A DNA stretch of 64,000 nucleotides, from positions 12,367 through 76,366 of the forward strand of contig CAYNHV010000001.1 of NCBI GenBank assembly GCA_964397315.1, in the 5' to 3' direction. The notes below the pieces were generated by a model, which was given only the letters and a program-made list of their open reading frames with translations, was not told the origin of the DNA and made no database searches. The position numbers were made by a program, and so were the translations under genes. Shown piece after piece: positions 2,361 to 62,291 of this stretch (the first letter of the stretch is position 1; every line of letters begins with the position of its first letter). The stretch is from an uncultured Methanosarcinales archaeon. GTDB taxonomy: Archaea > Nanobdellota > Nanobdellia > Woesearchaeales > UBA12501.

Positions 2361-3323
2361 TCAGGCCTTCTCAGCCATTCCTGCTGTATCAGGCTTGTTT
2401 CCCATGAACCATTCAGAGGTCTTTCTTATCCCCTCTTCTATGCTCACCTCAGGCTTCCATCCAAGCTCCTTTTCTGCCCTGCTGCATTCCAGGCTTATCC
2501 TGCTCACCTCTCCTGCCACAGCAGGAGTGCTCACTGCTTCAATGTCTGTTCCTGAAGCTTTCTTCAGCATGGAGTATATCTGGTTGACTGATGTCTCCTT
2601 TCCTGTGCCTATGTTGAATATCCTGCTCTTGGTGCTCTTCTCAAGGGCAAGAAGGTTTGCTTTTGCAACATCGCTCACGTAAACGTAATCCCTTGTCTGC
2701 TCTCCGTCCCCGAATATCTGCGGCTTTTCCCTGTTGATTATCTTGTTGAGGAATATGGCAACAACACCTGCCTCTCCGAAGGGGTCCTGTCTCGGGCCGT
2801 AGACATTAGCATATCTCAGTATGTTGAAGTCAATTCCATACATGTGCGAGTAGAGGAACACGTAATGCTCTGCGCAGTGTTTTGACACGCCGTAATGCGA
2901 GATCGGCATTATAGGATGGCCCTCAGAGCATGGTATCTTCTCTGGCTCCCCATAGCACGCCCCTCCTGAGCTGGCGTAAACAAACTTCTTCACCTTGTAG
3001 TCCCTGCAAAGCTCAAGAAGCTCTAGGGTCCCCACAATGTTTGATAAAGCGTCAAAGACAGGCTCTGCAACTGACTTCCTCACATTTACCTGTGCTGCCT
3101 GATGCACTACAAAGTCAGGTTTCTCTTTCTCAAAAACTTTCTCAAGGAATGGCGTGTTCTTTATGTCAACCTCGTAGAATCTTGCTTTTGGGTTTATGTT
3201 CTTCCTGTTCCCTGTGGAAAGGTCATCCACAAGAGCAACATCATAACCATTGTTAATCAGGATATCAGCAACATGGCTGCCTATGAATCCTGCCCCTCCT
3301 GTAACCATGACCCTGCCTTTCAT
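2361..3323 (-). CDS. NAD-dependent epimerase/dehydratase (UDP-glucose/UDP-glucuronate 4-epimerase-like)
   Basis: N-terminal Rossmann motif 'VMVTGGAGFIGSH', a YxxxK region and a C-terminal sugar-nucleotide-binding region. 320 aa. Confidence 0.85.
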   Translation of the reverse strand: MKGRVMVTGGAGFIGSHVADILINNGYDVALVDDLSTGNRKNINPKARFYEVDIKNTPFLEKVFEKEKPDFVVHQAAQVNVRKSVAEPVFDALSNIVGTLELLELCRDYKVKKFVYASSGGACYGEPEKIPCSEGHPIMPISHYGVSKHCAEHYVFLYSHMYGIDFNILRYANVYGPRQDPFGEAGVVAIFLNKIINREKPQIFGDGEQTRDYVYVSDVAKANLLALEKSTKSRIFNIGTGKETSVNQIYSMLKKASGTDIEAVSTPAVAGEVSRISLECSRAEKELGWKPEVSIEEGIRKTSEWFMGNKPDTAGMAEKA

Positions 3324-13322: not shown

Positions 13323-13488
13323 TGTCAAAAACCACCGGTCAGAGACCGGTGGCATGAAGCGAAAGCTTCATTCTCATTCTTTATTGACCTGTGGTTTTTG
13401 AGCATGCTCAGAAATATACCCTCTGCGGATATGCCTTTGTGGACTTTGTCCACTGGTTAAATAAACCAGTGGTATATTTCTGACATAT
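13323..13488. mobile_element. 166-bp MITE-like structured repeat, copy A (intergenic, 12 bp from the tRNA 3' end)
   Basis: Near-identical (1 mismatch) to 42593..42758. Terminal inverted repeats are TGTCAAAAA / TTTCTGACATA. It has three internal perfect hairpins, one with a GAAA tetraloop. Confidence 0.65.
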
Positions 13489-13500
13489 CAAACATGATAA

Positions 13501-13664
13501 TGCGCCGACCGGGACTTTCGAACAAGGGTTTTACGACCCGAAAGTCAACCACGTGGATTTTCCAGCGCAAACCCTCAGTTTTCGAACCCGGATAGTCGGC
13601 TTGGAAGGCCGAAGTTTGCCAGGCCTGCCCATGGCAGGTCTCATAGCCATTAGACCACCGGCGC
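13501..13664 (-). tRNA. tRNA-Gly(UCC), predicted to contain two introns (24 nt after the D-arm; 66 nt in the T-loop)
   Basis: On the minus strand: acceptor GCGCCGG/UCGGCGC (one G-U) with discriminator A. D-arm GUCU-AAUGGCUAUG-AGAC with GG in the loop. Anticodon arm UCGGC-CUUCCAA-GCCGA. T-arm CCGGG-UUCGAAA-CCCGG. The mature ~74 nt form is obtained only after removing forward 13614..13637 and 13514..13579. Confidence 0.55.
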
Positions 13665-13700
13665 ATTAATGCCAAGCATTAGATCTGAAAAACACCCCCT

Positions 13701-14795
13701 TTATAAAGGTTTCTTTAGCTCCTTTTTCAGCTGTTTTATGAATCTCTTGTTGTCCTTCTTCTTTATCACTGCCCCGCAGGCATGCTCGTGACCCCCTCCA
13801 AACCCATCTACATTCTTCAGGGCGCTCTCAAGGGCTGCTGATATGTTATCTTCAGCTGACCTCAGGCTGTATTTTATCTCTCCTGACTTCTCCCTGCCCA
13901 CCAGTATTATCTTGGTAGGATAATTGAAAAGCATCTCGTTAGCTACCTCGCTTGAGAAGCTGAACTTCTCACCCTTGTAGATGAACACAAAGAAGTCGTC
14001 CTTTTTCACCTCTCTCTTGGCCTTTTTCAGGAGGTTTTCATAATGCTCCTCAACACTCTTGTATCTCTTGTAGAGGAACCTTCCTGCAGGGGTCTTCTGC
14101 TTCAGGATCTCATACGGGCTGTCTATCCTTGTGAGGATTTTCATGCACCTTATCACATTCTCCTTCCTGCCTTTAAGGACAAAAGAGAGTATTCTCACCA
14201 GCCTGCCTATGGGCTGGGCAAAGAGAGCTTCTTCAGGCCTTCTCACAGAAGAGTCAAGCAGCTCAGGGTACTGCCTTACAAATTCATCCCTGAAGCCGGG
14301 CATCTGCCAGTCCCCTATTGAGCCTGCCATTGCAATCCAAATGTCCTGCTTCACAACCTCATAGCATATCCTTGATATGCATGTGTCATCCCCAGGCTCT
14401 TTTTTCCTTGGGTTAAAGTAGAGCACCCTGTCCCTCTTGAGGGGGGTGTGGTGGTCAACCCAGACAACAGAAATGCCCATCTCAGACATGTCATCAATGA
14501 AATCCTGCTCTACCATTGCAATGTCAAGAACAAAAACCTTGTCAGGCAGGTACTCCTTTACCTTTCTGGTGTAATTCTTCCTGTCAATCTTGGGTGTTGT
14601 CTTTACAATGGATCCCTTGCCCTCACCTATCCTCCTGTAGAAGAGCAGGAACGAAGCCAGGCCGTCTGCGTCATCATGGAAGAATATGAGGGGCCTCTTG
14701 CAGGAGGAGAGTTCCTCCCTGAGCCTCTGGATGTGTCTTTTCTCAAGCATGATCTCACCAACACTGAATTCAAAAAAAGATGATATTATGGGCAT
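13701..14795 (-). CDS. DHH-family phosphoesterase (NrnA/RecJ-like, DHH + DHHA1)
   Basis: 'FFHDDADGLAS' (motif I/II), 'VDHHTP' (DHH) and 'GGGHEHACG' (DHHA1 GGGH). 364 aa. Confidence 0.75.
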   Translation of the reverse strand: MPIISSFFEFSVGEIMLEKRHIQRLREELSSCKRPLIFFHDDADGLASFLLFYRRIGEGKGSIVKTTPKIDRKNYTRKVKEYLPDKVFVLDIAMVEQDFIDDMSEMGISVVWVDHHTPLKRDRVLYFNPRKKEPGDDTCISRICYEVVKQDIWIAMAGSIGDWQMPGFRDEFVRQYPELLDSSVRRPEEALFAQPIGRLVRILSFVLKGRKENVIRCMKILTRIDSPYEILKQKTPAGRFLYKRYKSVEEHYENLLKKAKREVKKDDFFVFIYKGEKFSFSSEVANEMLFNYPTKIILVGREKSGEIKYSLRSAEDNISAALESALKNVDGFGGGHEHACGAVIKKKDNKRFIKQLKKELKKPL

Positions 14796-16125: not shown

Positions 16126-17676
16126 TCACTTCTTCCCGGAGCTCTTTTTGCTCTTTGCCTTTTTCCGCGTTTTCTTTTTGCCTGAGGCCTTTGACTTTCC
16201 TGCACTCTTTCCGCTTTCCTTTTTGTTTCCTGCTTCTTTCTCAGGAGTTTTTTTCTCTGCGGTATTCCCTGCCTCTGCAGATGCTTTCTTGCCGGTCTCT
16301 TCTTTGCCAGTCCCTTTTCCATAGTGCTTCTCTTTCATCTCAGGGCTTATCCTTGTGAGCTCCTCCTCTGGCATCTCCCTGAGCAGGCTCCACCCAAGGT
16401 CAAGTGTTTCATGTATGCTCCTGTCCTCGTTCTTTCCCTGCCTGACGAACCTGTCCTCAAAGTGGCCTGCAAAGTGCAGGAGCCTCTTGTCCCTCTCGCT
16501 TAGGGCCTCCTCCCCAACAATAGCCACAAGGCCTCTCTGGTCTCTTCCCTCTGCATAGTTGGCGTAAAGCTGGTCAGACACCTGCTTGTGGTCCTCTCTT
16601 GTCTTCCCTTTTCCTATGCCCATGTTCATGAGCCTTGAAAGGGAGGGAAGCACGTCTATTGGAGGGTAGATGTTCTTCCTGTGCAGCTCCCTGCTGAGCA
16701 CTATCTGCCCCTCTGTTATGTAGCCTGTAAGATCAGGTATTGGGTGGGTTATGTCATCCCCTATCATGGTGAGTATAGGGAATTGGGTTATGGAGCCCTT
16801 TCTTCCCTGCACCATTCCTGCCCTCTCGTAGATCCCTGCAAGGTCGGTGTACATGTATCCCGGATACCCTCTTCTTCCGGGAATCTCCTCCCTTGCAGCT
16901 CCTATCTCCCTGAGGCTCTCGCAGTAGTTTGTCATATCCGTGAGTATGACAAGCACGTGCATGTCCTTCTCATAAGCGAAGTATTCCGCTGCTGTCAGGG
17001 CCATCTTTGGCGTAACAAGCCTCTCAACTGCAGGGTCGTCAGCCAGGTTGAGGAAAACAACAGACCTCTCAAGCGCGCCTGTCTCCTCAAAGTCCCTGAT
17101 GAAAGTCTGGGCTTCCTCGTTTGTTATTCCCATTGCAGCGAATATGACAACAAAGCCCTCCTTCTGGCCTATTACCTTGGCCTGCCTTGCTATCTGCAGC
17201 GCTATCTCATTGTGAGGCAGTCCTGACCCTGAGAAAATGGGAAGCTTCTGCCCTCTCACAAGAGTGTTCATCGCGTCAATTGTTGATATTCCTGTCTGGA
17301 TAAAGTCAGCAGGGGGGCCTCTTGCGTAAGGGTTGATGGCTGATCCTGTGATGTCCATCTTTTTCTCTGGTATTATCTCAGGCCCTCCATCAATAGGCTT
17401 TCCTGCTCCGCTGAGTATCCTGCCGAGCATGTCATCTGAAACAGGAAGAGTCATTGTCTCTCCGAGAAACTTGACTCCCGACTTCTTGTCAATGCCTCTG
17501 GTGCCCTCAAACACCTGCACTACGACAAGGTCGTCGCTTGTGTCAAGCACCTGCCCGTTCTTTATGGATCCGTCAGGCAGCGCTATCCTCACAAGGTCTG
17601 CGTAGCCTATGGGCTCTGTCTTTTCAACAAAGACGAGGGGTCCTGCAATCCTTTTTATTGTCTTGTATTCTTTCAT
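16126..17676 (-). CDS. atpB: A-type ATP synthase subunit B with ~60-aa Lys-rich C-terminal tail
   Basis: Conserved regulatory-subunit core ('IAGPLVFVE', '[11 protein letters not shown]', '[14 protein letters not shown]'). The tail '[19 protein letters not shown]...[17 protein letters not shown]' is in frame up to the stop. Confidence 0.9.
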
Positions 17677-47525: not shown

Positions 47526-48489
47526 GCTGGAAGGAAAGAGTGTGCTTGTGATAGGTGGAGCGGGATTCATAGGAAGCCATGTTGTGGCTGAACTGCTGAA
47601 GGAGCCTGTGAAAGAGGTCGTGATATATGATAATTTTGCTAGAGGAAGATATGAGCATATCAACAAGCTGCTGAAGGACAGCAGATGCAGGCTCTTTGAG
47701 GATGGAGGAGATATAAGAGACATTGATGTTCTGGATGCTGCAATGAAGGATGTTGACTATGTGATACACCTTGCAGCAATGTGGCTGCTCCACTGCAAGG
47801 ATTACCCACGAACAGCATTTAACGTCAATATTGAGGGCACTTTCAATGTTCTTGATGCCTGCGTCAAAAACAAGATAAAAAAGCTTGTGTATTCTTCATC
47901 AGCATCGGTATATGGCACTGCTGTTGAGGTGCCTATTAAAGAAAGCCACCCTTTCCTCAACAAGAACTTTTATGGGGCCACAAAAATAGCGTCAGAGGCG
48001 ATGTGCACAGCCTTTTATGACAGGTACGGCCTGGATTTTGTAGGATTAAGATATATGAACGTGTTCGGGCCGCTGCAGGACCAAAAAGCAGTTTACACAG
48101 GAGTAATACCAGTTATGCTGAACAAGATAGAAGAGGGAAAAGAGATAACCATAAATGGTGATGGCTCACAGGCCTATGACTTCATCTATGTAGAGGATGT
48201 TGCCAGGGCCAATGTATGCGCACTGAAGAGCGACGCAACAGATGACTTCTTCAATGTTGGATCAGGGATCAGGACAACAATAAAAGATCTCGCAGAGAAT
48301 ATACTCAAACTGAAGGGATCAGAGCAGAAGATAAGGTTCATTCCCTACAGCGAGGGGGATGCAAGATCTCTAGTACAGGACAGGGTGGGATCAACAGAGA
48401 AAGCTGAAAAAGAGCTCGGGTTCAGGCATAAGTATTCTCTTGAGGAAGGCCTGAAGAAGCTTATTGGGTGGAGAAATAAAGCAAAATAG
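47512..48489 (+). CDS. NAD-dependent epimerase/dehydratase
   Basis: 'VLVIGGAGFIGSHV', 'YGATK'. 325 aa. Confidence 0.85.
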   Translation: MMANKLEGKSVLVIGGAGFIGSHVVAELLKEPVKEVVIYDNFARGRYEHINKLLKDSRCRLFEDGGDIRDIDVLDAAMKDVDYVIHLAAMWLLHCKDYPRTAFNVNIEGTFNVLDACVKNKIKKLVYSSSASVYGTAVEVPIKESHPFLNKNFYGATKIASEAMCTAFYDRYGLDFVGLRYMNVFGPLQDQKAVYTGVIPVMLNKIEEGKEITINGDGSQAYDFIYVEDVARANVCALKSDATDDFFNVGSGIRTTIKDLAENILKLKGSEQKIRFIPYSEGDARSLVQDRVGSTEKAEKELGFRHKYSLEEGLKKLIGWRNKAK

Positions 48490-48504
48490 ATTAGGGGGAT
48501 TATA

Positions 48505-49935
48505 ATGAAAGTTTTTTTAGTAAGTCCACCACAACCAAAAAAAGATTTAGTATCAAACTTAAGTAAAGGGGAGGGTTTTATTTTACCTTATAGTTTGCTG
48601 TGTATTGCAACATACCTTAATTACAAGAAACACAAAGCTAAAGTTTTGGATTGTCCTGCAGAGCACATATCTAATAAAAATCTTTATGATATAATAAAAA
48701 AAGAGAAACCTGATGTGGTAGGATTAACAGCTTTTACTTTTACTATCCCAAAAGCATACAACGCTGCTGAAACTATTAAAAAGGCTTCACCAAACACTAA
48801 AGTAGCTCTAGGCGGCATTCACGCAAGTGTTCTTCCTATTCAATGTTTAAAGGAGTGCAGGCATATAGATTTTGTTGTTATTGGAGAGGGAGAGTATGTT
48901 TTTGAAAGATTATTAGAGGCTCTCGAAAAAAAAGGCGCTCTTTCAGAGGTTAGTAATTTAGCATACAGAGAAGGAAAAGCCCATAGATTAACAAAAAAAG
49001 AGCATATATTTCTAGATCCCAATAAATTGCCTCTTCCAGATTATAGCTTATTAAACATGGACAGGTATGTTCCTCACAGGGGAAATTATAAAGATTTACC
49101 ATGTTACAGTTTTTATACCAGCAGAGGGTGTCCTTTCCAATGTTCATTTTGCTCTGCCAATATAAATATGGGAAGAATGATCAGAAGGAAAAGCATAAAC
49201 AGGTGTATTAAAGAGATAAAAATTTTGGTTAATAAGTATGGGGCAAGAGGACTGATAATCCAAGACTCAACATTTACCATCCAGAAAGAGTGGGTAAGAA
49301 ACTTTTGTAAAGCTTTATTAAAAAATAATATCAGATTAAGCTGGAGAGCTAATACAAGAGCAGACTGTGTGGACCTGAAAACCTTAAAGTTGATGAAAAA
49401 AGCAGGATGTTATAGGATTAATGTTGGATTTGAATCTGGAAATCAAGAAACACTGGATTTTATAAATAAAGGGACTACTCTAAAGCAGAATAAAAGAGCA
49501 GCATATCTTGCAAGAAAAGCAGGTTTGCAGATAGGGTCATCCTTCATAATAGGGCTTCCTAATGAAGGGATGAAGGAGGTTATGAATACTATCAGGTTCG
49601 CTAAGGAAATAAAAGCTAAACATGCTCAGTTTTACCTTCCCATACCCTATCCTGGAACAAAACTCATGGATTTATGCAAAAAGTACGGAGGGGTAAGAGA
49701 AAATACAAGATGGGAAGATTTTGGCTCTAGAGATTTCAGCAATGCAGTATATATAAACAAAAACTTTGACAAAGAAACCTTTAAGAATCTGCCCAATATG
49801 GCATTTAGAAGATTTTATCTTGATCCTAAAACAGTAGCCAGACTTATTTTTACTATAGGAAGCTTTCACGAGTTAAAAGATACTCTGGGAACTCTTAAAT
49901 CAATAGCAAAAAAAGCCATATTTAACAGACTATAA
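48505..49935 (+). CDS. B12-binding domain radical SAM protein (class B radical SAM, methyltransferase-like)
   Basis: N-terminal B12-binding-like region and 'YTSRGCPFQCSFCS' (CxxxCxxC). 476 aa. This is the start of a visibly AT-richer segment. Confidence 0.8.
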   Translation: MKVFLVSPPQPKKDLVSNLSKGEGFILPYSLLCIATYLNYKKHKAKVLDCPAEHISNKNLYDIIKKEKPDVVGLTAFTFTIPKAYNAAETIKKASPNTKVALGGIHASVLPIQCLKECRHIDFVVIGEGEYVFERLLEALEKKGALSEVSNLAYREGKAHRLTKKEHIFLDPNKLPLPDYSLLNMDRYVPHRGNYKDLPCYSFYTSRGCPFQCSFCSANINMGRMIRRKSINRCIKEIKILVNKYGARGLIIQDSTFTIQKEWVRNFCKALLKNNIRLSWRANTRADCVDLKTLKLMKKAGCYRINVGFESGNQETLDFINKGTTLKQNKRAAYLARKAGLQIGSSFIIGLPNEGMKEVMNTIRFAKEIKAKHAQFYLPIPYPGTKLMDLCKKYGGVRENTRWEDFGSRDFSNAVYINKNFDKETFKNLPNMAFRRFYLDPKTVARLIFTIGSFHELKDTLGTLKSIAKKAIFNRL

Positions 49936-49936
49936 A

Positions 49937-50797
49937 ATGAAAATACTAGTTACAGGATCTTCAGGTTACCTAGGAAATGCTTTTATTAAACAATTTAAGG
50001 ATGAGCATGATATAATAGGACTTGACAGAGACAATAGAAAAAGAGATTATAAAAAAGTGCAAGGAGATCTCTCTAATTATAAGAAAATCATGAAAAATCT
50101 GGATGAGATAAAAGATGTGGACTGCATAGTGCATTTTGCGAGCCTTACTGATATAAAAGAGTGTGAAAAAAACAAAATGGCGGCTTTGGAAACTAATCTA
50201 ATGGGGACATGGGCACTTTTAGAGCATGGAAAAAGAGTGGGCATAAGAAAATTCATATACATCTCCACAGGAAGCATATATAAAAAAACAGAAAAAGAAG
50301 TGTCAGAAGAAGATGAAACAGAAGCTGATAACTTTTATGAAAGCACTAAACTTATGGCAGAAGAAATCTGCAAACAATATTCGAATAAATTTGATATAAT
50401 AATGTTAAGACCTTTTTTTCCTTATGGAAAAAACACCCATCCAAACAGATTGATAAATAAAATCATTCAGAATGTAAAAGATGGAAAGAGCATAATTCTA
50501 AATAGAAAAAATAAGCCAATTGTATCTCCAATATATGTAGATGACATGAGCAATGCAATAGATACCATAATAAAGAAGGACAAAGAAGAAAAAATTTCAA
50601 TATATAATCTTGCTGGCCCAAACGGATACTCCATAAAAGAGATTGCAGAAATAATTGGGAAAATAATCAATAAAAAACCAAAATACCAAAAAGGAAAGTC
50701 AGACTCCTCCAACTTCTGTGGTTCTGCAATAAGACTTAAAAGTTTAGGTATTAAATTGCATAATATAGAGGAAGGCTTAAGATTAACCATGGAATAA
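49937..50797 (+). CDS. NAD(P)-dependent epimerase/reductase (RmlD/short SDR-like)
   Basis: 'ILVTGSSGYLGNAF', a 'YESTK' YxxxK. 286 aa. Confidence 0.6.
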   Translation: MKILVTGSSGYLGNAFIKQFKDEHDIIGLDRDNRKRDYKKVQGDLSNYKKIMKNLDEIKDVDCIVHFASLTDIKECEKNKMAALETNLMGTWALLEHGKRVGIRKFIYISTGSIYKKTEKEVSEEDETEADNFYESTKLMAEEICKQYSNKFDIIMLRPFFPYGKNTHPNRLINKIIQNVKDGKSIILNRKNKPIVSPIYVDDMSNAIDTIIKKDKEEKISIYNLAGPNGYSIKEIAEIIGKIINKKPKYQKGKSDSSNFCGSAIRLKSLGIKLHNIEEGLRLTME

Positions 50798-50833
50798 GTT
50801 GGCAACATCAGCAGTATATAGTTTAAAAAGAAT

Positions 50834-52702
50834 ATGTGCGGCATAACAGGATTATTCAATTTTTCAGGAAGTGCGGCTTCTGATGATGTAATCAAGAGCA
50901 TGACAGATGCCATAAAGCACAGGGGACCTGACGGCGAAGGTTTCTTTAGGGAAGGGAATATGGCTTTAGGCCACAGGAGGCTCTCTATAATAGACCTCAG
51001 TGAGAAAGGCAGCCAGCCCATGAAAGATGAAAACGCCTCTGTTATAATAGCATATAATGGTGAGGTTTACAATTTCAAGGATATCAGGAAAGAGCTTAAG
51101 GAGAAAGGCTATGATTTCAGGTCAGAAACAGATACAGAGGTTGTCCTTTATGCATACAAGGAGTGGGGCATCTCATGCATAAGAAGATTCAATGGAATGT
51201 TCGCTTTTGCATTGTGGGACAGGAAGAATAAAAAGGGCTATCTTGCAAGGGACAGGTATGGGATAAAGCCCCTCTATTATTACAAGGATGGGGAGAAGCT
51301 TGTCTTTGGGTCTGAGATAAAAGCCATACTTAAACATCCTGAAATAAAGGCAGATCTGGACTACAAGGCCCTCAAAGAGTATTTCACATTCCAGAATGTG
51401 CTGTCAGACAGGACCCTCTTTAAGGGAATAAGACTTATGGAGCCAGGCAGTTACATAGAATTCGGGCCTGAGACATTCAACAAGGAAAGATATTGGGATT
51501 ATGATTTCATCTCAGGAGAGCTAAAGCTTCAAAAAAAGGAGATAATAAGCAAGCTCAGGGAGATATTTGAAAGAGCTGTTAGGAGGCAGATGGTGAGTGA
51601 TGTGCCTGTCTCCAGCTATCTGAGCAGCGGGATGGACTCATGCTCAATAGCAACTGTTGCCTCCGGAAACACTGAAAACATGAGAACATTCACAGCAGGC
51701 TTTGACATGAGGGGGGTATCAGGTTTTGAGAATGATTTTGATGAGAGAGAAAAAGCCAGGATAATGGCAGAGCATCTTTCCACAGAACATCATGAGACAG
51801 AGGTAAGCTCTGAATTCATGGAAAAATCCATGGAAACCCTTGTTTACCATATTGAGGATTTAAGGATGGGAATGAGCTTTCCTAACTATGCTGTGGCAGG
51901 TCTTGTGTCAGGCCATAACAAGGTTGTGCTGGCAGGGACAGGAGGTGACGAGCTTTTCTGCGGCTACCCATGGAGATATAACCATGCTGTGGGCAACAAA
52001 GACAGAGGGGAATACATCAGGAATTATTATGGACTCTGGCAGAGGTTGGCAGGAGATGATGAGAAGCAGGAGATGTTCACGCAAGAAGCCTTAAGGATGA
52101 TGGAGGATTACGACACTTTTGAAGTGTTCAGGAAGGTTTTTGACAAAAAAAACATTGACCCAAATAATAACAGGGACTGTGTAAACAATGCGCTCCAGTT
52201 TGAAGCAAGAACATTCCTCCACGGTCTGCTTGTTATTGAAGACAAGATCAGCATGGCGCATTCCCTGGAGACAAGAGTCCCTTTTCTTGATAATGAGATG
52301 GTGGACCTTGCCATGAAAACACCTCTCAGTCTTAAGCTAAAGAATTATGAGAAGCTTATGAGAGCAGGGCCTGATGAAGCAGAGGCATTGAGAGGCAGTT
52401 ATGTTGAGTCCACAGACGGCAAGCTCATACTTAGGGAGGCCATGGAAGGGCTTATACCAGAGGAGATAGCCTTCAACAAGAAGCAGGGATTCTCTGCCCC
52501 TGTTGCAGAATGGTTCAGGAAACATAGCAGGAGCTATGTGGAAGATGTTTTGCTTTCAGAAAAAGCCTTAAATAGGGGCATATTCAACCCGGAATATGTG
52601 AGAAAAAGGCTGCAGGCCCATTTTGAGGGGAAGGAGAACAACAGGCTCCTCATATGGTCCCTGTTATGCTTTGAGCACTGGTGCAGGAGATGGTTGGATT
52701 GA
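50834..52702 (+). CDS. asnB: asparagine synthase (glutamine-hydrolyzing) family amidotransferase (WbpS-like candidate)
   Basis: Ntn 'MCGITG', 'GHRRLSIIDLS', PP-loop 'SSGMDSCSIA'. 622 aa. Confidence 0.85.
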   Translation: MCGITGLFNFSGSAASDDVIKSMTDAIKHRGPDGEGFFREGNMALGHRRLSIIDLSEKGSQPMKDENASVIIAYNGEVYNFKDIRKELKEKGYDFRSETDTEVVLYAYKEWGISCIRRFNGMFAFALWDRKNKKGYLARDRYGIKPLYYYKDGEKLVFGSEIKAILKHPEIKADLDYKALKEYFTFQNVLSDRTLFKGIRLMEPGSYIEFGPETFNKERYWDYDFISGELKLQKKEIISKLREIFERAVRRQMVSDVPVSSYLSSGMDSCSIATVASGNTENMRTFTAGFDMRGVSGFENDFDEREKARIMAEHLSTEHHETEVSSEFMEKSMETLVYHIEDLRMGMSFPNYAVAGLVSGHNKVVLAGTGGDELFCGYPWRYNHAVGNKDRGEYIRNYYGLWQRLAGDDEKQEMFTQEALRMMEDYDTFEVFRKVFDKKNIDPNNNRDCVNNALQFEARTFLHGLLVIEDKISMAHSLETRVPFLDNEMVDLAMKTPLSLKLKNYEKLMRAGPDEAEALRGSYVESTDGKLILREAMEGLIPEEIAFNKKQGFSAPVAEWFRKHSRSYVEDVLLSEKALNRGIFNPEYVRKRLQAHFEGKENNRLLIWSLLCFEHWCRRWLD

Positions 52703-52712
52703 ATGATAGGCA

Positions 52713-53297
52713 TCAGTCTATAGCAATCCTGTATGTGTTTTTGACCCTATCAATGTACCACTTATCTATAGAGAGTGTTGATGGATAGTTATATCTCTCA
52801 TCAACAGCAAAAATATTAACTTGCCCGAAAGAGGATGCTCTGTTATTGGACAGGTTAACAAATCCAAACCCTGCATAATAGTTTTTTCCGTCCCATTTCG
52901 GAAATGGCCTTGTAGGGGAGGTTAATGTCATGTACCATGTGCCGTTCCTATGCAGGGTTTTATAATAGTGAAAATCCCCCTGCAACACAAGATCTGTGTT
53001 GTACATTGCATTCCAGTGTTCAACAGTCCTGGCTTCAGTCTTACTCCATCCTATTGCCCTGCGTCCTTGGCTATCAAACAATACAGGGGGTTCGGATATC
53101 ATAATGAGAGTTTTGTTTCTATATTTCCTCAGATTATTTTTGATCCATTCCATCTGATTATCTGTTGGTTTGCCGCTGTGAAGTCCCACAGGATTTATCT
53201 CATTCCCGTTAACCACCATAAAATTATACTCGCCTACATTTGCCATAAAATTCCATTTCATGGTGGGAAATGTTCCGTTCTTTTTGGCCTCATTCAA
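52713..53297 (-). pseudogene. C-terminal fragment of a metallophosphoesterase (purple-acid-phosphatase-like), N-terminal metal-binding motifs absent
   Basis: 'LVLQGDFHYY' matches the GHxHxYER-type C-terminal motif. There is no GDxHG/GDxxDRG upstream, the in-frame upstream is closed by stops, and the only start is TTG. Confidence 0.4.
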
Positions 53298-53364
53298 AAT
53301 GTTTCTTTGGGAGTCAAAGAATACAGGCCTCCCAAATGCTTTTGCGTAAATGACCTCCTCCCCG

Positions 53365-53384
53365 ACCTAAAGGTCGGGGAATTA
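53365..53384. other. perfect 8-bp-stem hairpin CCCCGACC-TAAA-GGTCGGGG at the truncation point
   Basis: Palindrome read directly from the sequence. Confidence 0.5.
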
Positions 53385-53656
53385 AACCCCAGTGCTCACT
53401 ACACTCGCATTAGTGTTTTGGAGCCTCATTTTGCCCTTAGGGGCATTTTGAGGTTTTTAAATCTTCATCAAAATTACAGAAGAAGCATATTTCTAAATAT
53501 GGGCAAAACAGAGCTTGGTAATGCTTTTAAATGGCCTTTGGGATGTTTAGACTATTTTAAAAGAGGATTAAAGATAAACAATAATTTTATAAATGTGTGG
53601 TTTTAGATTATTTAAGTCCCGGAGGGGGTATTGAAGAGGGGTGTATATTTAGATAA

Positions 53657-54394
53657 ATGATAATTTTAACTTTTGACATGGACTGGGCACCTGATTGGAT
53701 TATGGAAGATATAGCTGACAGGCTGATTAAAAAAGAAATACCATCAACTTGGCTGGTGACCCATGAGACTCCTTTTATCAAGAAGTTATTAAAATACCCT
53801 TCTCTCTTTGATATAGGATACCACCCTGATTTCTTAAGAAATTCAATAGAAAAAAAAAGTGTTGATTCAATAATGAAAAAAATGAAGAGCATAATTCCTA
53901 GGAGAAACATCATAAGAACTCACTGCCTGTATCAGTATACTGACCTTTTAAGATATTTGTGTACAGACCATGATATACGAGTGGACCTTTCAGTCTATCT
54001 TCATCTGACTCAAGATATAAGATCTCATTTCCTGAATTGCAAGGACGGAAAAAAGCTTCTCAGAATACCTACTTTTTTTGAAGATGACCTCTTTTTTGGT
54101 GAAAACACAGATTGGGGCATAAAAGAGCTTGGAATAGAAAGGGAAGGGTTGAAAGTATTCAACTTTCACCCAATCCATATCGCCCTGAATTCAAAAGATT
54201 ACAGGGGATATAGCGAATTAAAAGAGGAAACGCATGATTTAAAACTTGTAAAAAAAGAGCAAATAAACAAGTTCTTTAATAATGAGAAAGGAATAGAATC
54301 CCTATTTAGTCAGTTAATTGAATTCATGGAGAAAAATAGAGATAAGGTTAAATCATTGCCTGATATTTCAAGAGAATTGGGAGTTAAAATATGA
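53657..54394 (+). CDS. hypothetical protein (possible polysaccharide-deacetylase-like fold)
   Basis: 245 aa; 'TFDMDWAPD', 'GYHPD', 'NFHPIHIALNS'. The family assignment is uncertain. Confidence 0.3.
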   Translation: MIILTFDMDWAPDWIMEDIADRLIKKEIPSTWLVTHETPFIKKLLKYPSLFDIGYHPDFLRNSIEKKSVDSIMKKMKSIIPRRNIIRTHCLYQYTDLLRYLCTDHDIRVDLSVYLHLTQDIRSHFLNCKDGKKLLRIPTFFEDDLFFGENTDWGIKELGIEREGLKVFNFHPIHIALNSKDYRGYSELKEETHDLKLVKKEQINKFFNNEKGIESLFSQLIEFMEKNRDKVKSLPDISRELGVKI

Positions 54395-55146
54395 GGCATG
54401 TAAATATTGATATAAATAAGAACCTGATTAAAGGATTAGGTGAAAATGATTTGTCTTTCCTTAAAAGAGTTTACTCAAAGAATATTAATAAATACAGAGA
54501 AAGAATTAAGATGATTGGATTTGAAGATAAAAACGCTGTGCTTGATGCAGGATGTGGTTTCGGACAGTGGCTTTTTTCCCTTGCAGATATGAACAAAAAG
54601 GTGGTTGGAATAGATTTTTCACAAGAGAGAGTTGATGTATGCAAGGAAATAGCACAAAAGAATAATATAAACAATGTTGAAGTGATTAAATCAAGCATAA
54701 CTAATACAGAATTGAAAGAAGAATCTTTTGATGCCATATTTAGTTATAGTTCAATCTATTTTACTGATTACAGAAAAACACTTAAAGAATTTTACAGGTT
54801 GCTTAAAAAAGGGGGAGTATTGTACTTCACGACCAATAGTTGGGGAAAGTATATATCTGATATCATCAATAATCCTTATCCAACCAGCGATTTTTATCCA
54901 AGATGGTATGCTATAAAGACAATATGGAATACATTCAAGAACAAAAGAGAAGGTTTCTCTATGGAAAACGGAGCCTTGGTTATGTCAAAAAAAAAGACTA
55001 AGAGAATAATGCAAAAAATAGGTTTTTATGATATAAGAATCGATTATGACGGCCACTTATGCACAAAAGACCGAGAACCGCTCCCTTTAGTTCCAGAAAC
55101 ATATATAGGCATGACTCATTCTTTTGAGGTGTTAGCAAGAAAATGA
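54391..55146 (+). CDS. class I SAM-dependent methyltransferase
   Basis: Motif I 'VLDAGCGFGQW'. 251 aa. Confidence 0.75.
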   Translation: MRHVNIDINKNLIKGLGENDLSFLKRVYSKNINKYRERIKMIGFEDKNAVLDAGCGFGQWLFSLADMNKKVVGIDFSQERVDVCKEIAQKNNINNVEVIKSSITNTELKEESFDAIFSYSSIYFTDYRKTLKEFYRLLKKGGVLYFTTNSWGKYISDIINNPYPTSDFYPRWYAIKTIWNTFKNKREGFSMENGALVMSKKKTKRIMQKIGFYDIRIDYDGHLCTKDREPLPLVPETYIGMTHSFEVLARK

Positions 55147-55958
55147 CATGCAACATCTTTTTCATAGTGGGTTGTAGCAGATCTGGCACCACAGCCCTGG
55201 TAAAAATTCTCAATACAGCAGTTAATGCAGAGGTGTTTACCGAACAGGAACCTAAACTCTGCATAAATGCAAGGATAAACTATGAGTTTGGAATGCCTCG
55301 CAGTAAAGATTACATAAAAGAAAGCAAGAGTAAGGCAATCAAGGCTACTCTCTCTAAAGGGAAAAAATATATGGATAAGAACCCTAATTATCTATTCTTT
55401 ATAGATGAACTGATGGCTAACTTTGATTGTAAATTCATTTTTGTTATCAGAGATGGGAGAGATGTAGTAAGAAGTGCTATGGATTATGATGAGTATGGAA
55501 AGAATCTTTACAGAACATTTGAAGATGAAGATAACCCAAAAACAGTGCAACCTGAAGAAGATTTCTGGGATTTTGCAAGACTAAGGCCAAAAAAAACAGA
55601 TACTATATTTTATAGTTGGAAGAGTCTGACAAGATTTGAGAAAGCATCATGGTACTGGGCAAAATTCAATGGTCTGATACTTAAAAAGATAGAGAAGAAG
55701 GATAAAGACAGATTTATTACTGTGGATATCTCAAACATAAATCTAAAAGAAATTGAAAAAATATTCAATTTTGCAGGGCTTGAAGGATTTAATAGAGACA
55801 TAATAAGCAAAATGCTCAAAGAAAGAATCAACTCAGCACAAGAAAAGTGGGGCCTGAAAGATATCTTTCCAAAATGGGATAAATGGGATAATAATATGAA
55901 AGAATCGTTTAGCAGATATGCAGGACGCATGATGAAAAGATTAGGTTATAATAAATAA
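55143..55958 (+). CDS. sulfotransferase family protein
   Basis: 5'-PSB 'FIVGCSRSGTTAL' and 3'-PB 'VIRDGRDVVRSAM'. 271 aa. Confidence 0.75.
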   Translation: MTCNIFFIVGCSRSGTTALVKILNTAVNAEVFTEQEPKLCINARINYEFGMPRSKDYIKESKSKAIKATLSKGKKYMDKNPNYLFFIDELMANFDCKFIFVIRDGRDVVRSAMDYDEYGKNLYRTFEDEDNPKTVQPEEDFWDFARLRPKKTDTIFYSWKSLTRFEKASWYWAKFNGLILKKIEKKDKDRFITVDISNINLKEIEKIFNFAGLEGFNRDIISKMLKERINSAQEKWGLKDIFPKWDKWDNNMKESFSRYAGRMMKRLGYNK

Positions 55959-55990
55959 GGAGACAATTCGATAAGAGAAGGGGGCATGAT

Positions 55991-57598
55991 ATGGAAATAC
56001 TGTTTTTAGTTTTGGTTCTTGCTTTTGGATTGCTATTGAGACTTGCTTTTATAACAAAGGAAGGCACAGATTTATATGTCCATTTCTGGTTAATTAAAAA
56101 GCAGAAAGGAAGAAAATGGGTAAACTATGAGGTAGAAGACTCAATAGTCAAGGGTGTTAGGGCTTACCCAGTGCTTAACCATCTCCTAGTAAGCAAACTG
56201 CCTGAAAAATACTGGATTACAGCAGGAAAGGTATTAAACGCCTCTTATGATATAATAACAGCCGTGCTTGTTTATATCACTGCGAGATTTGTAAATTTAG
56301 AGGGAGGGTTTTATTATAGTGTTGCAGGAATTAGCCTGCCATTGATTTGCACATTTGTATTCTTGACCCTCCCAGTTCTTTTGCCTTCAAGTGCTCGGAT
56401 GAGAACAATAGGGGGAAGGTCCATGGGGCTTCTTTTTGTTTCATTATACTTTGTCAGCTTGGGAGCGGGATATTTAATACACCCAGTCTATTTTTTTCCC
56501 TCTGTGATATTCGGTCTCCTTGCGATACTCAGCTCTAAGTTTGGTTTCCAGACCATCCTTTTATTTTCTTTTTTTCTGGCTTTCATCAAGCTTTCGGTTA
56601 TCCCTTTGATTATTACGACTATCCTGATTATAATAGCTTATACTTTTCCGAAATTAGGGGCATGGACAATAATAAAACACTGGTGGGATCACAGGATATG
56701 GTTCTTCAATAACTATGAGAAGTGTACAGCTTCAGCAGGAAGAAATAATATAAAAGATATACTATTTCTTCCGGTATACTTATTCAGAGACAGAAAAAAA
56801 TTCATCATGCAGTGCTATTTCAAGATTACACCATTAATGGCATTGAGAGTCGTCCCTGTTGTCGTTTTCCTTATCATAATAAGGTTTTTTTACCCTGGTA
56901 TCTGGTCAATAATTCAGAGTAATAGTTATCTGCTATTCTCCTGGGATATAACTGTTGCCTCAATATTCTCCTTCATATTAACTTCAATATATGTTTTTAA
57001 GGGTATGGGAGAAGCTGAAAGATATTTTGAGTACAGTTCTCTCTTCTACTCCATCATATTCCCATTTATAATTTTTAATATCTCTAAGTCAAGAGAAGAT
57101 ATATTATTCTCTGTTCTTTTGCTACAACTTGTGATTATATTATCACACCTTCTGGTTATAAATTATAACAAGCTTGTTGATTCTGAGACGATGATACCCA
57201 AGAACATGAAAGAGGCTGTTGAATGGATTAGGAATAATGTAAGAAAAAGCAATATATTGACGGTTCCCTGTAAACTTTCAGTAGTCTTATCATCCAATGC
57301 AGATAAGGATAACCTCAATAAATTCTATTTTAGGTTTATCATGACGAAAAGAGGGGGTCTAGATTACTTTGAAGAGGACACAGGGGGATACCATTATTCA
57401 CCAGTAAACGGCCTCATGAGATCTAATGAAGTTTTTAGTTTAACTCCCTATGAGATGAAAAGAAAATATAAAGCAGATTATATTGTTGTGGAAAAGAAAT
57501 ATTTTGAAGGTTTAAAGAAAACATTGGGAAAACAAGGCATAAAGTTCCTAAAGAATCCTGTTTTCGAGAATGGGAACTTCCTGATTTATAAGCTTTAA
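55991..57598 (+). CDS. polytopic membrane protein (putative glycan polymerase / GT-C-like)
   Basis: 535 aa with >10 hydrophobic segments, located inside the glycan cluster. Confidence 0.4.
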   Translation: MEILFLVLVLAFGLLLRLAFITKEGTDLYVHFWLIKKQKGRKWVNYEVEDSIVKGVRAYPVLNHLLVSKLPEKYWITAGKVLNASYDIITAVLVYITARFVNLEGGFYYSVAGISLPLICTFVFLTLPVLLPSSARMRTIGGRSMGLLFVSLYFVSLGAGYLIHPVYFFPSVIFGLLAILSSKFGFQTILLFSFFLAFIKLSVIPLIITTILIIIAYTFPKLGAWTIIKHWWDHRIWFFNNYEKCTASAGRNNIKDILFLPVYLFRDRKKFIMQCYFKITPLMALRVVPVVVFLIIIRFFYPGIWSIIQSNSYLLFSWDITVASIFSFILTSIYVFKGMGEAERYFEYSSLFYSIIFPFIIFNISKSREDILFSVLLLQLVIILSHLLVINYNKLVDSETMIPKNMKEAVEWIRNNVRKSNILTVPCKLSVVLSSNADKDNLNKFYFRFIMTKRGGLDYFEEDTGGYHYSPVNGLMRSNEVFSLTPYEMKRKYKADYIVVEKKYFEGLKKTLGKQGIKFLKNPVFENGNFLIYKL

Positions 57599-57612
57599 TA
57601 AATATATAACCA

Positions 57613-59088
57613 GTGGTTAATATGCAAAAAAACAGAATATCTCTTAAAAGAAACCTGATTTATGCTCTGTTCACCAATGCTTTTGTGGCTTTTATGGGGT
57701 TTCTTTTTCATGTGCTGATAATCAGGAATGTCAGCAAGGACTTGTATGGCCAATATTCCTATTTCATCAGTTTGTCATTGATATTTATTGCCCTTTCAAA
57801 CATGGGTTTGACAGGATATTATCTTGTTAATTCATCCAAAAGGAGAAAAGACATGAGTAAAAATTACTATAAAAGTATCTATTTAAGGAGTTTATTAGTA
57901 ATAATTGTTTCTCCTGTATTCTTAATAACATTCATCTTGTTAGAAAACACCCTCAATCTGATATTTTTAACGGTGCTTGCTTTTGTAATATCTGAGAGTT
58001 TCCTCAGAGGAACAATGATCGTTTTTCGCTCACAGGAGATGATCAAATACTGGTCCATAAACCAGGTCTTTTATTATTCAGCGAAATTTCTGCTTTTTTT
58101 CATATTTATTTACATAGTGGATTGGAGTTCGCTTTTATTGTTTCTTTTCCTAACGCTAACAAACACATTGCTCACTCTTTTAGTTAATAGCATATTGAAA
58201 AGAAAACTATTAAGGGTTTCTTTGAGAAAGCTCATTTTAGTTGCAAAAAAAGTTTCTGTAAAGCGCGAAATAAAGAGAATTGTGCCTTTTACATTATTTC
58301 AGGTTTTTTTTATTATGTTCTATAAAGTTGATGTTATAATGATTTCAAAGATGGTGTCTGATTCCGCCGTAGCGTTGTACTCCTCTGCTTTCCTTATAAT
58401 TCAGGCTTTAATCAATGTATCAAAAAGCATTTCAATAGCCATCGCTCCAAGATTTGCTCTTTATTACGAAAAATCAGAGAGAAAAAGATTAGACGAATTG
58501 ATTAACAAATTAATCCCCCTTATTCAGTACACAAGTTTTTTGATATTAGGAATAATATTGGTTTATGGTTGGAAAATAATAATCTTGATATTTAGCGAGA
58601 GATATTCGGATGCCGCAGGCATATTATCAATATTGATATTCTCTTTTTTTCTTATATTTTACCATGACCTTTTCGCCATATTGATGAACAATACAGGACA
58701 TGAATCTTATGCCACTTTATTCTATGGGATAGCTATGGCCATAAATATAATTCCAAACTTTGTGCTTATACCATTGTGGGGTGCGAAAGGAGCCGCAATA
58801 GCAACTGTTGCTGCATTTACTTTTCTGGCTTCTATATCATATATATACACACTAAGAAAGATAACTAATAAAATGGTCTTTTTCAGAAGATTTTTTATAT
58901 TCTCCATTATAACAGCAATTACATATCTTATCTGCAACCACTATTTCAAACAAGAGCTATTCCTTGGAGTAGCAGTTTTTGTTTCAATTTATACGTTATT
59001 GAGTATCATCCTTAAAGTATTTCCAGAGGAAGGTTTTAAGTTTATTAGAGGTATGATAAAAAGTATATCAACAAGAGCTAATAGATGA
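57613..59088 (+). CDS. MOP-superfamily polysaccharide flippase (Wzx-like)
   Basis: 491 aa with ~12-14 TM segments. The N-terminal 'LIYALFTNAFVAFMGFLFHVLIIRNVSKDLYGQYSYF' pattern is typical of Wzx/RfbX. Confidence 0.6.
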   Translation: MVNMQKNRISLKRNLIYALFTNAFVAFMGFLFHVLIIRNVSKDLYGQYSYFISLSLIFIALSNMGLTGYYLVNSSKRRKDMSKNYYKSIYLRSLLVIIVSPVFLITFILLENTLNLIFLTVLAFVISESFLRGTMIVFRSQEMIKYWSINQVFYYSAKFLLFFIFIYIVDWSSLLLFLFLTLTNTLLTLLVNSILKRKLLRVSLRKLILVAKKVSVKREIKRIVPFTLFQVFFIMFYKVDVIMISKMVSDSAVALYSSAFLIIQALINVSKSISIAIAPRFALYYEKSERKRLDELINKLIPLIQYTSFLILGIILVYGWKIIILIFSERYSDAAGILSILIFSFFLIFYHDLFAILMNNTGHESYATLFYGIAMAINIIPNFVLIPLWGAKGAAIATVAAFTFLASISYIYTLRKITNKMVFFRRFFIFSIITAITYLICNHYFKQELFLGVAVFVSIYTLLSIILKVFPEEGFKFIRGMIKSISTRANR

Positions 59089-59097
59089 GGCAGCATA

Positions 59098-60381
59098 TTG
59101 ATGAAAAGAATGTTCAATTATGTAAGAAATATAAACAGATTTAATGAGATTATAGTTCTCCTGTTTTTAGGTGTTCTGTTAGGAGTTGCTAGCTTCTTTG
59201 GTTTTCAAATGGTGTGCACTATCCTACTCTTTATTATTTTGCTTATGATAATTTGGAGAACAAAAAATAAGATCGTTATTGCTGCTTTTTTGATTCGTGT
59301 TGCCATACAACTCATGAATTATAGTTTCTCCATACTTGAGCCCAAAGGCACTTCAGTAGGTTACATGACAATTCTTGAAAGAGCGCGTTTTTCTTTGCTC
59401 ACACAAGGGGACCTTTCCAATGTCTTCTACCAGTCAGGATCATCCAGCTTCCCATACCTTATCCTGCTCTATCCCTTTGCTGTAATCTTCGGAGCATTCA
59501 TAATAAACTTCTTCATAATCAACTCTTTCCTGGGAGCCCTTGCAGTATTCAATGTCTTCAGGATCTCAGACAGGGTTTTCGGCAAAAAAACAGCAATCAT
59601 CTCCTCTCTAATTTTTTGTTTCTCCCCTTATATAGCCTACATGAATGGCGTTTTCTCGAGAGATCCTTTAATCTTACTAATAACTACTCAGATAATCTAC
59701 CTTCTTGTGGATATGGCAAAAAAGAACACGCTCAGACCATCAATATTTGTATTCCTGGGGCTGCTCTTCTTCCTGAGAGTGGAATCATTGCTCATAATAG
59801 CATTTGGCTTTGTAGCTTACAAGTTCATCCAGATAAAGGATATCAGGAAGAACGTACTGCTGATAGCCGCAGCTGTTATCCTTGTCATTTTTCTTTTATC
59901 AAATCTCACAGTATATATGTTTCCAAGAGGTGACTCCCCTGTAAACACGCTTGATGAGTTCAGGGATTATCGGTCTCATGGAAGATCAGTGTATCTAAAA
60001 CACCATCAGTATAACACTCTTTTAGATATTGTGTATTATCTACCATCAAGGTTTGTCTATTTTGCATATTCTCCCCTTCCTCATCAGATAGAAAAGCCCA
60101 GGGACCTGCTCGGGCTTGTAGATAGCGCTATACTGATAATGCTTACGATTTTTGCCTTCCTGTCCAAGAAAACTATTTTAAGAGACAAACAGGCCCTCCT
60201 AATGCTTATAATACTCCTGACAGGATTTGCAGCAAGCTCCATAATAGAGGGAAATGTGGGGGCTGCAATGAGGCACAGGATGCAGTACTCATTCATATTG
60301 TACATCCTAGGCAGTTATTACCTGTCAAAACATTTAAAGATACCAGCATTAGACAGGCTTATTAAGAAAAGGATAATCTGA
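59098..60381 (+). CDS. polytopic membrane protein (Wzy/O-antigen-ligase-like candidate)
   Basis: 427 aa with multiple TM segments and a large loop. Confidence 0.35.
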   Translation: MMKRMFNYVRNINRFNEIIVLLFLGVLLGVASFFGFQMVCTILLFIILLMIIWRTKNKIVIAAFLIRVAIQLMNYSFSILEPKGTSVGYMTILERARFSLLTQGDLSNVFYQSGSSSFPYLILLYPFAVIFGAFIINFFIINSFLGALAVFNVFRISDRVFGKKTAIISSLIFCFSPYIAYMNGVFSRDPLILLITTQIIYLLVDMAKKNTLRPSIFVFLGLLFFLRVESLLIIAFGFVAYKFIQIKDIRKNVLLIAAAVILVIFLLSNLTVYMFPRGDSPVNTLDEFRDYRSHGRSVYLKHHQYNTLLDIVYYLPSRFVYFAYSPLPHQIEKPRDLLGLVDSAILIMLTIFAFLSKKTILRDKQALLMLIILLTGFAASSIIEGNVGAAMRHRMQYSFILYILGSYYLSKHLKIPALDRLIKKRII

Positions 60382-60383
60382 AA

Positions 60384-61984: not shown

Positions 61985-62160
61985 ACCTCATCTTGGACTT
62001 AAGCAACAGGAAAGATCTGAAAAGTCTTGTTTCCTCTATGAACAAGTGCATATCTTACAGGGGCCCTGACCCACAGGGAATCCTTTTGAAGGATAATGCA
62101 TCTTTGGGTCATCGCAGACTGTCCATCCTTGATATTTCAGAGAGAGGAACTGAAAGATAA
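61972..62160 (+). pseudogene. N-terminal 62-codon remnant of an asparagine-synthase (AsnB) gene
   Basis: 'MCGINLIL...YRGPDPQGILLKDNASLGHRRLSILDISERG' parallels 'MCGITGLF...HRGPDGEGFFREGNMALGHRRLSIIDLSEKG' of the gene at 50834, then stops. Confidence 0.6.
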
Positions 62161-62291
62161 GTTTTAAAATCAATGGAAAATGAGATTAGGAAACTTTACA
62201 GGAGTTATTCCAAAAACAGAGAGGATGACTCAAAGAAGCTCTGGAACGTTTATGTGCTTTCAAAATGGCTGGAAAAGAACAGGATAGAACC

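Follow-up and report, generated by a model that had tools for sequence, protein, structure and literature searches.

The window analyzed here is a 64-kb stretch of DNA with a G+C content of 44%. The genes neighboring the locus described below are archaeal and include an A-type ATPase operon, an SMC gene, and, directly upstream of the locus, a DHH/DHHA1 phosphoesterase gene. The best matches of the DHH protein are proteins from Candidatus Woesearchaeota and Nanoarchaeota MAGs, with at most 73% identity. The locus itself occupies positions 13501 to 13664, and its minus strand reads GCGCCGGUGG...UCGGCGCA. This strand carries a 7-bp acceptor stem (GCGCCGG/UCGGCGC) with A73, the anticodon arm UCGGC-CUUCCAA-GCCGA, and the T-stem CCGGG/CCCGG, all present as claimed in an initial annotation that had recognized a tRNA-Gly(UCC) here. 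Two segments must be removed before a cloverleaf forms. Exon 1 (13642 to 13664, on the minus strand like all other parts of the gene) provides tRNA positions 1 to 23, namely, the 5' strand of the acceptor stem, U8 G9, the 5' strand of the D-stem, the D-loop AAUGGCUA, and U22 G23. It is followed by intron 1 (13616 to 13641; 26 nt, AGACCUGCCAUGGGCAGGCCUGGCAA), which interrupts the 3' strand of the D-stem at position 23/24. Exon 2 (13581 to 13615) covers positions 24 to 59, from A24 C25 and U26 through the UCGGC-CUUCCAA-GCCGA anticodon arm, the variable loop CUAU, and the 5' strand of the T-stem (CCGGG) to T-loop positions 54 to 59 (UUCGAA). Intron 2 (13515 to 13580; 66 nt) lies in the T-loop at position 59/60 and is followed by exon 3 (13501 to 13514), which holds positions 60 to 73 (U60, CCCGG, UCGGCGC, and A73). 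CCA is not encoded at the 3' end of the gene.

For comparison, the DHH protein was used as an anchor. In 38 other assemblies, the DHH gene is likewise followed directly by a tRNA-Gly(UCC) gene, giving 39 genes with that of the window. All 38 assemblies are annotated or binned as Woesearchaeota or Nanoarchaeota, although some records are mislabelled "Methanosarcinales." Once the 26-nt and 66-nt introns are removed, the window's gene yields a mature tRNA of 72 nt, which ARAGORN called as tRNA-Gly(tcc). The spliced product has four stems of canonical length: an acceptor stem of 7 bp including one G-U pair, a D-stem of 3 bp plus U13.U22, an anticodon stem of 5 bp with the loop CUUCCAA, and a T-stem of 5 bp with the loop UUCGAAU. 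The conserved nucleotides tested were U8, A14, G18 G19, A21, U33, a purine at position 37, G53-C61, and a T-loop of the form UUCRAAY, and the product carries them, with A37 and UUCGAAU at the two variable points. Its D-arm, GUC(U)-AAUGGCUA-(U)GAC, in which the loop holds A14, G18 G19, and A21, is the same as that of the intronless ortholog in L003 and L007, and only 3 of the 72 positions differ between the mature product and the syntenic intronless tRNA of L003. Glycine identity of the archaeal/eukaryal type is specified by C35 C36, A73, G1-C72, C2-G71, and G3-C70, all of which are present in the spliced product.

The unspliced gene escaped standard searches. No tRNA was detected in the 64-kb window by ARAGORN, with or without intron search, or by Rfam at the gathering score. 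The unspliced locus reached 14.5 bits against the Rfam tRNA model in a permissive search, and a value below the gathering score is expected with the introns present; the L003 tRNA scores 65 bits on the same model (RF00005; gathering score, 29). Other hidden tRNAs were not found in the window either by ARAGORN with introns allowed or by Rfam at an E value of ≤1. Both strands were also scanned for an acceptor stem and a T-arm with an insert allowed, which gave three matches, the tRNA-Gly locus and two others that fall within ORFs and lack any further tRNA feature. At a loosened threshold, ARAGORN returned 97 matches in the window, which were judged to be noise.

The intron borders were set with a bulge-helix-bulge (BHB) geometry of a 4-bp central helix and two 3-nt bulges on opposite strands, with the cut placed after the second bulge nucleotide. 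This geometry is consistent with the BHB definition in PMC4090602, where the motif is a 4-bp helix with two 3-nt bulges and the central helix of the canonical intron holds the first two anticodon bases. Two independent automated searches were run. One enumerated BHB candidates and passed them through a cloverleaf filter, and the other aligned the locus to intronless orthologs and then refined the borders by BHB geometry. Both returned the same pair of introns, 23/24 with 26 nt (central helix 4/4, inner helix 7) and 59/60 with 66 nt (central 4/4, outer 5, inner 10), and the same 72-nt product. Each intron thus has the central helix and two bulges of an archaeal BHB intron, and the proposal of two introns at non-canonical sites, including one within the T-loop, was borne out, with both corrected junctions lying in BHB motifs. 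Other BHB-like pairs in the precursor (s5/s3 = 20/36, 34/50, and 11/34) gave products that are not tRNAs. When intron 2 alone was removed, ARAGORN gave only implausible calls, namely, Ala(ggc) split by a 3-nt intron or a tRNA whose anticodon has 4 nt. For several orthologs, the first solver (BHB plus cloverleaf) was overly strict or gave spurious three-intron solutions, and the alignment-guided refinement was used instead.

In the BHB motif of intron 1, G19-C20-U20a-A21 pairs with UGGC of the intron to form the central helix (GCUA/UGGC, with one G.U pair), which is flanked by the bulges U22 G23|A (UG|A) and A A|A24 (AA|A). Seven pairs and one A.C mismatch make up the hairpin of the inner helix. 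On the outer side, the helix consists of one contiguous pair, G18-C25, or of 2 to 3 pairs if irregularities are allowed, and this junction is therefore a relaxed motif. The cut between G23 and A24 is the one at which the window matches the intronless ortholog of L003 and L007 (...GGCUAUGACUUCGGCC...) after removal of 26 nt, exon 1 being identical to the same part of these orthologs. The 23/24 site and its geometry were also found in L092, L027, and L101. Over the four orthologs, 95.5% of cells were paired, compared to at most 45.5% in slid controls, four sequences being too few for shuffles.

The initial annotation had drawn the borders differently, with a 24-nt intron 1 at 13614 to 13637 and a 66-nt intron 2 at 13514 to 13579 (position 60/61), which would give a 74-nt tRNA with a 4-bp GUCU/AGAC D-stem, a 10-nt D-loop, and the T-loop UUCGAAA. 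ARAGORN accepts this 74-nt product as tRNA-Gly(tcc) too, so the core observation holds. However, no BHB motif is present at those borders, and none of the three equivalent placements of a 24-nt intron provides a central helix. The 74-nt product also has two extra nucleotides (AG) compared with the D-arm of every ortholog; the arm of the 72-nt tRNA matches L003 and L007 instead. The alternative further needs A60, which is absent from all orthologs with a resolved mature sequence, and the strict BHB predicts cuts that yield U60. We regard the 74-nt structure as extremely improbable. With the corrected borders of both introns, the mature tRNA is 72 nt rather than 74 nt.

Intron 2 is a strict 3-4-3 hBHBh' motif. 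Its outer helix is the 5-bp T-stem (pre-tRNA nucleotides 74 to 78 with 152 to 156), its central helix pairs U54-U55-C56-G57 with CGAA of the intron (nucleotides 145 to 148), and the two bulges read A58 A59|A (AA|A) and A G|U60 (AG|U). A long hairpin of 10 pairs with one mismatch serves as the inner helix. Insertion at 59/60 gives the canonical T-loop UUCGAAU, and the orthologs with a resolved mature sequence have U or C at position 60 and in no case A. The direct repeat GTTCGAAA around intron 2 is neither a scar of duplication nor a further tRNA piece but the palindromic central-helix strand of this BHB: TTCGAA is its own reverse complement, and the intron copy pairs with T-loop positions 54 to 57. 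Pairing at this site is kept across the 14 orthologs that have it, with 87.8% of cells paired compared to 78.6% in shuffles. The covariation score of 0.304 (shuffles, 0.146) was reached by 0 of 500 shuffles, and every slid control scored lower. Covariation is seen between position 57 and the intron base that it pairs with, which form G-C in nine of the 14 orthologs, A-U in three, and a mismatch in two.

Compared with shuffled sequences, the pre-tRNA has a more stable fold (z = -3.41). The BHB-competent conformers differ from the minimum free energy (MFE) fold, at a cost of about 4.7 kcal/mol each, and the conformer with both motifs has -61.1 kcal/mol compared to -69.7 kcal/mol. The MFE fold shows the 3' bulge of intron 2 and the T-stem, but in it the 5' bulge is displaced by 2 nt and the central helix grows to 6 bp. 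Part of the energy gap is due to an alternative helix of nucleotides 7 to 12 with 17 to 22. RNAfold predicts the same helix in the mature tRNA, indicating that the thermodynamic model is a poor guide for the D-arm.

The 39 orthologs have zero to three introns at five sites (20a/21, 23/24, 37/38, 53/54, and 59/60), in about a dozen combinations. The 59/60 site is occupied in 14 of 39 genes, the 23/24 site in 4 of 39, and the 37/38 site in 23 of 39. Nine orthologs have no intron. A single intron is present at 37/38 in 10, at 59/60 in four, and at 23/24 in one (L092). Six orthologs have introns at 37/38 and 59/60, and the pair 23/24 and 59/60 was found only in the window. The other pairs were seen once each: 23/24 with 37/38 (L027), 23/24 with 53/54 (L101, which is cut by a contig end), 20a/21 with 59/60 (L034), and 37/38 with 53/54 (L091). 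Three introns are present at 20a/21, 37/38, and 59/60 in L016, at 20a/21, 37/38, and 53/54 in two orthologs (L018 and L063), and at 37/38, 53/54, and 59/60 in L061. The two T-arm introns of L061 can be parsed in two ways, with one and the same product. The intron of L019 was resolved by neither solver and was assigned to 37/38 by analogy with the near-identical L022. Two minor observations were made in this set. The 53/54 introns of L091, L063, and L061 have common ends (AAATG...CATTCGGAAA), and in L044 other tRNA genes (Ser, Lys, and Glu) also bear introns.

Relatedness does not predict the presence of introns in this gene. The orthologs in L007 and L005, with 73% and 70% DHH identity to the window, have no introns, and those in L008 and L009 (about 71%) have an unrelated 27- to 31-nt intron at 59/60. 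Since the relatives with the most similar DHH proteins have no intron or a different one, and the pattern is patchy among syntenic orthologs, the gene is a poor taxonomic marker, contrary to what had been suggested for it. Judged from these comparisons, the introns are part of a fast-turnover population, with zero to three introns at five alternative sites across the orthologs. There appears to be no earlier detailed description of such an intron mosaic in a single gene across Woesearchaeota.

A candidate archaeal promoter lies on the minus strand at 13700 to 13714 and consists of a TATA box, TTTATAAA (13700 to 13707), and an A-rich BRE-like motif, AGAAACC (13708 to 13714). This stretch and the stop codon of the preceding DHH gene overlap. 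All close orthologs have the TATA box upstream, and a block, [AC]CTTTATAAA, is conserved in front of the tRNA gene in L003 to L006, L091, and L092. The distance from the end of the TATA block to the mature 5' end is 24 to 25 nt in the orthologs and 35 nt in the window. We infer that the TATA/BRE motif may act as the promoter of the gene. Downstream, the T-run is weak (UUU), which can be attributed to a repeat element 9 nt past the gene. A tRNA-Gly(UCC) is needed by this genome, since GGA and GGG make up 426 of the 739 glycine codons in the window's genes, GGA being the commonest.

A decaying pseudogene or an integration remnant would be a different interpretation of the locus, in which the insertions disrupted a former tRNA-Gly gene and no functional tRNA is made. 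The failure of standard tools on the locus and the weak outer helix of intron 1 would fit such decay, as would the MITE-like repeat 9 nt downstream and the partial tRNA duplicates, typical integration scars, that adjoin the ortholog in L029 and L097. However, both insertions sit exactly in BHB geometry, and their removal restores all stems (with one G-U pair and a U13.U22 mismatch that is common to L003) and leaves a product 3 nt from an intact ortholog. Both sites also recur in other genomes with different intron sequences but with the pairing kept, the promoter motif is intact, the conserved syntenic slot is occupied, and the majority of glycine codons are GGA or GGG. We consider loss of function very unlikely on these grounds. 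The reading that we prefer, with a probability of roughly 0.88, is that 13501 to 13664 holds a functional gene for tRNA-Gly(UCC), with two BHB introns, in a DPANN archaeon of the Woesearchaeota type. It draws on the gene with its exon/intron borders and BHB geometry, on the synteny of the orthologs and the covariation of the BHB helices, and on the promoter motif.

If the gene works in this way, transcription from the TATA/BRE promoter at the end of the DHH gene would give a leader followed by about 164 nt of pre-tRNA. EndA would recognize the two BHB motifs and cut past the second nucleotide of each 3-nt bulge, releasing the 26-nt D-stem intron and the 66-nt T-loop intron. An RtcB-type ligase would then join the exons of 23, 35, and 14 nt into the 72-nt tRNA, and CCA would be added after exon joining. 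Neither an EndA (tRNA_int_endo) nor an RtcB domain was found when 50 of the 63 called ORFs in the 64-kb window were scanned with Pfam. The canonical 37/38 intron has the same 3-4-3 geometry as the window's introns and presumably the same cleavage and ligation chemistry. The window's copy has no 37/38 intron, unlike 23 of the 39 orthologs, and because its introns are in the D-stem and the T-loop, a BHB can form only when the D-arm is unfolded and the T-loop is paired.

Insertions of another kind, such as group I or group II introns or other non-BHB elements, or a split or permuted tRNA assembled in trans, have next to no chance of accounting for the locus. Group I introns are found in tRNA genes of the Patescibacteria, another group of ultrasmall prokaryotes (PMC13011429). 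However, inserts of 26 and 66 nt are far below the size of a group I or II ribozyme, no Rfam intron family was matched, and the three exons are collinear on the same strand behind a single promoter.

Long T-loop introns (59 to 66 nt) form at least two sequence families across divergent genomes, one consisting of those of the window and L012 and the other of those of L017 and L034, the latter two being 70% identical. Short introns at 59/60 are unrelated to each other. The intron of the window and the 64-nt 59/60 intron of L012 (locus at about 3100 to 3260) are 83.8% identical, compared to 84.7% for the mature tRNAs, about 51 to 58% for the gene flanks, and 58% for the DHH proteins. Relatives with 66 to 73% DHH identity have no 59/60 intron or the unrelated one of 27 to 31 nt. 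BLAST of intron 2 against all fetched loci found a further copy in L012 only. A three-block pattern of intron 2 gave three unrelated matches in JGI metagenomes, in GC-rich, apparently coding DNA outside a tRNA context, and neither this pattern nor an exon pattern matched a viral contig collection. RNAalifold found no compensatory change between the introns of the window and L012, two sequences being too few for this purpose.

Intron 2 resembles the box C/D sRNA intron of euryarchaeal tRNA-Trp(CCA) (cited in PMC4090602) in being unusually long (about 65 nt compared to a typical 12 to 25 nt) and conserved in sequence, but it differs in its insertion site and in having no conserved C/D boxes. No UGAUGA and no conserved C (RUGAUGA) or D (CUGA) boxes were found in intron 2. 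Its sole CUGA is UUGA in the homologous L012 intron, and a permissive Rfam search gave only a chance-level snoRNA match (E = 4.9). Neither a box C/D sRNA nor any other known RNA was thus recognized in intron 2. Tentatively, the 66-nt intron might be more than a passive spacer, either a horizontally mobile BHB intron that homes to the T-loop of tRNA-Gly or a selected stable RNA, perhaps circular, but we think this unlikely.

Non-canonical multi-intron tRNA genes are already known in archaea, DPANN included, and the locus fits this class, with two introns that both lie outside 37/38 and at recurrent sites. PMC4090602 lists 59/60 and 53/54 among known insertion sites. In ARMAN-2, T-loop introns are found in tRNA-Cys(GCA) at 59/60, where cleavage was demonstrated in vitro, and in tRNA-Pro(GGG) at 53/54 and 59/60 (Fujishima et al. 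2011, PMC3239211). The latter pair is the one seen within the T-arm of L061. Kaneta et al. (2018, PMC5829648) ran tRNAscan-SE 2.0 on DPANN genomes, including one Woesearchaeota genome, and linked DPANN alpha4 EndAs with an L3 loop to increased tRNA gene disruption. Set against PMC4090602 and these two studies, the initial annotation's restriction of such genes to only a few archaeal lineages is too narrow.

ARMAN-2 (Ca. Micrarchaeum) is like the window in its DPANN host, the 59/60 site, a BHB formed from the T-stem and T-loop positions 54 to 57, and multiple introns per gene. It is unlike the window in that other isoacceptors are interrupted rather than Gly-UCC, and the second intron of the window is in the D-stem at 23/24. 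The 59/60 introns also differ in length, with 13 nt in ARMAN-2 tRNA-Cys(GCA) and 66 nt in the window. The ARMAN-2 EndA is epsilon2, whereas other DPANN lineages are reported to have alpha4 with an L3 loop (PMC5829648); the EndA of the window's genome is not among the scanned ORFs. In the Thermoproteales, up to three BHB introns per gene occur at non-canonical sites that include 20/21, 22/23, 25/26, 53/54, 56/57, and 59/60, and similar introns in different genes and genomes have been interpreted as the result of transposition (PMC4090602 and PMC4033280, which review the multi-intron genes of Sugahara et al. 2007/2008 and Fujishima et al. 2010). Like the orthologs of the window's gene, these genes gain and lose introns rapidly between relatives and hold up to three per gene. 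In contrast, the Thermoproteales are Crenarchaeota (TACK) with an (alpha-beta)2 EndA that has a crenarchaeal loop, and the window's host is a DPANN archaeon with a mesophile-like G+C content of 44%. The 23/24 site of the window does not appear in the list of Thermoproteales sites in the available portions of these reviews.

The locus extends a pattern that has been detailed mainly for Thermoproteales and ARMAN-2 and involves no new mechanism. Because ARAGORN and Rfam miss a gene that decodes the commonest glycine codons, annotation without intron-aware tools would make genomes of this lineage seem to be missing an essential tRNA. The syntenic series of 39 genomes could be used to estimate rates of BHB intron gain and loss in DPANN archaea and could also show which relaxed motifs are tolerated by a DPANN endonuclease.

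Several further features were observed around the gene and its orthologs. A repeat of about 166 to 170 nt is present twice in the window, at 13323 to 13492 and at 42593 to 42762, both on the minus strand and with 98.8% identity. With its terminal inverted repeats of about 10 nt (ATGTCAGAAA ... TTTTTGACAT) and two perfect hairpins in its interior, it looks like a MITE-type mobile element; a plasmid collection contained no match to it. The copy at 13323 to 13492 is the element that starts 9 nt past the 3' end of the tRNA. In L003 (about 2111 to 2230), L004, L005, and L094, one or two long hairpins lie directly 3' of the tRNA-Gly gene. They have a common loop/stem motif, AATCCC-AGACGAGCTTGCGAGTC-GGGATT, and constitute a conserved structured element whose sequence is unlike that of the window's repeat. 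In L029, past the end of the DHH gene, a repeat of the 5' 16 nt of tRNA-Gly lies about 95 nt upstream of the intact gene, and in L097 (about 1137 to 1421) the 3' end, GCCGGCGCAT, is repeated about 60 nt downstream of the intact gene. Both partial duplicates resemble scars left by an element that integrated into the tRNA gene.

Elsewhere in the window, the second repeat copy adjoins a gene at 41385 to 42074 (plus strand) for an AbiEii-type nucleotidyltransferase toxin (PF08843, E = 6e-26). Several small ORFs without a family match lie near it, as does an AAA_14/DUF4143 ATPase at 39393 to 40673, and this region may be a small mobile or defence islet. The region from about 48000 to 64000 has a G+C content of 33 to 40%, compared to 44 to 50% elsewhere in the window, and contains sugar-modification genes (B12/radical SAM, epimerases, asparagine synthase, a WbmS-like deacetylase, sulfotransferases, methyltransferases, and a flippase). 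The whole region probably represents a variable island for surface glycans. At 53337 to 53477 (minus strand), a subthreshold match to the Rfam HgcC family RNA covers the full model length (31.9 bits compared to a gathering score of 50; E = 0.0016) and lies antisense within an ORF at 52950 to 53606 that has no Pfam match. The B subunit of the A-type ATPase (16126 to 17676, minus strand) has a C-terminal tail of about 60 amino acids rich in Lys, Ser, and Gly, which is unusual for this subunit.
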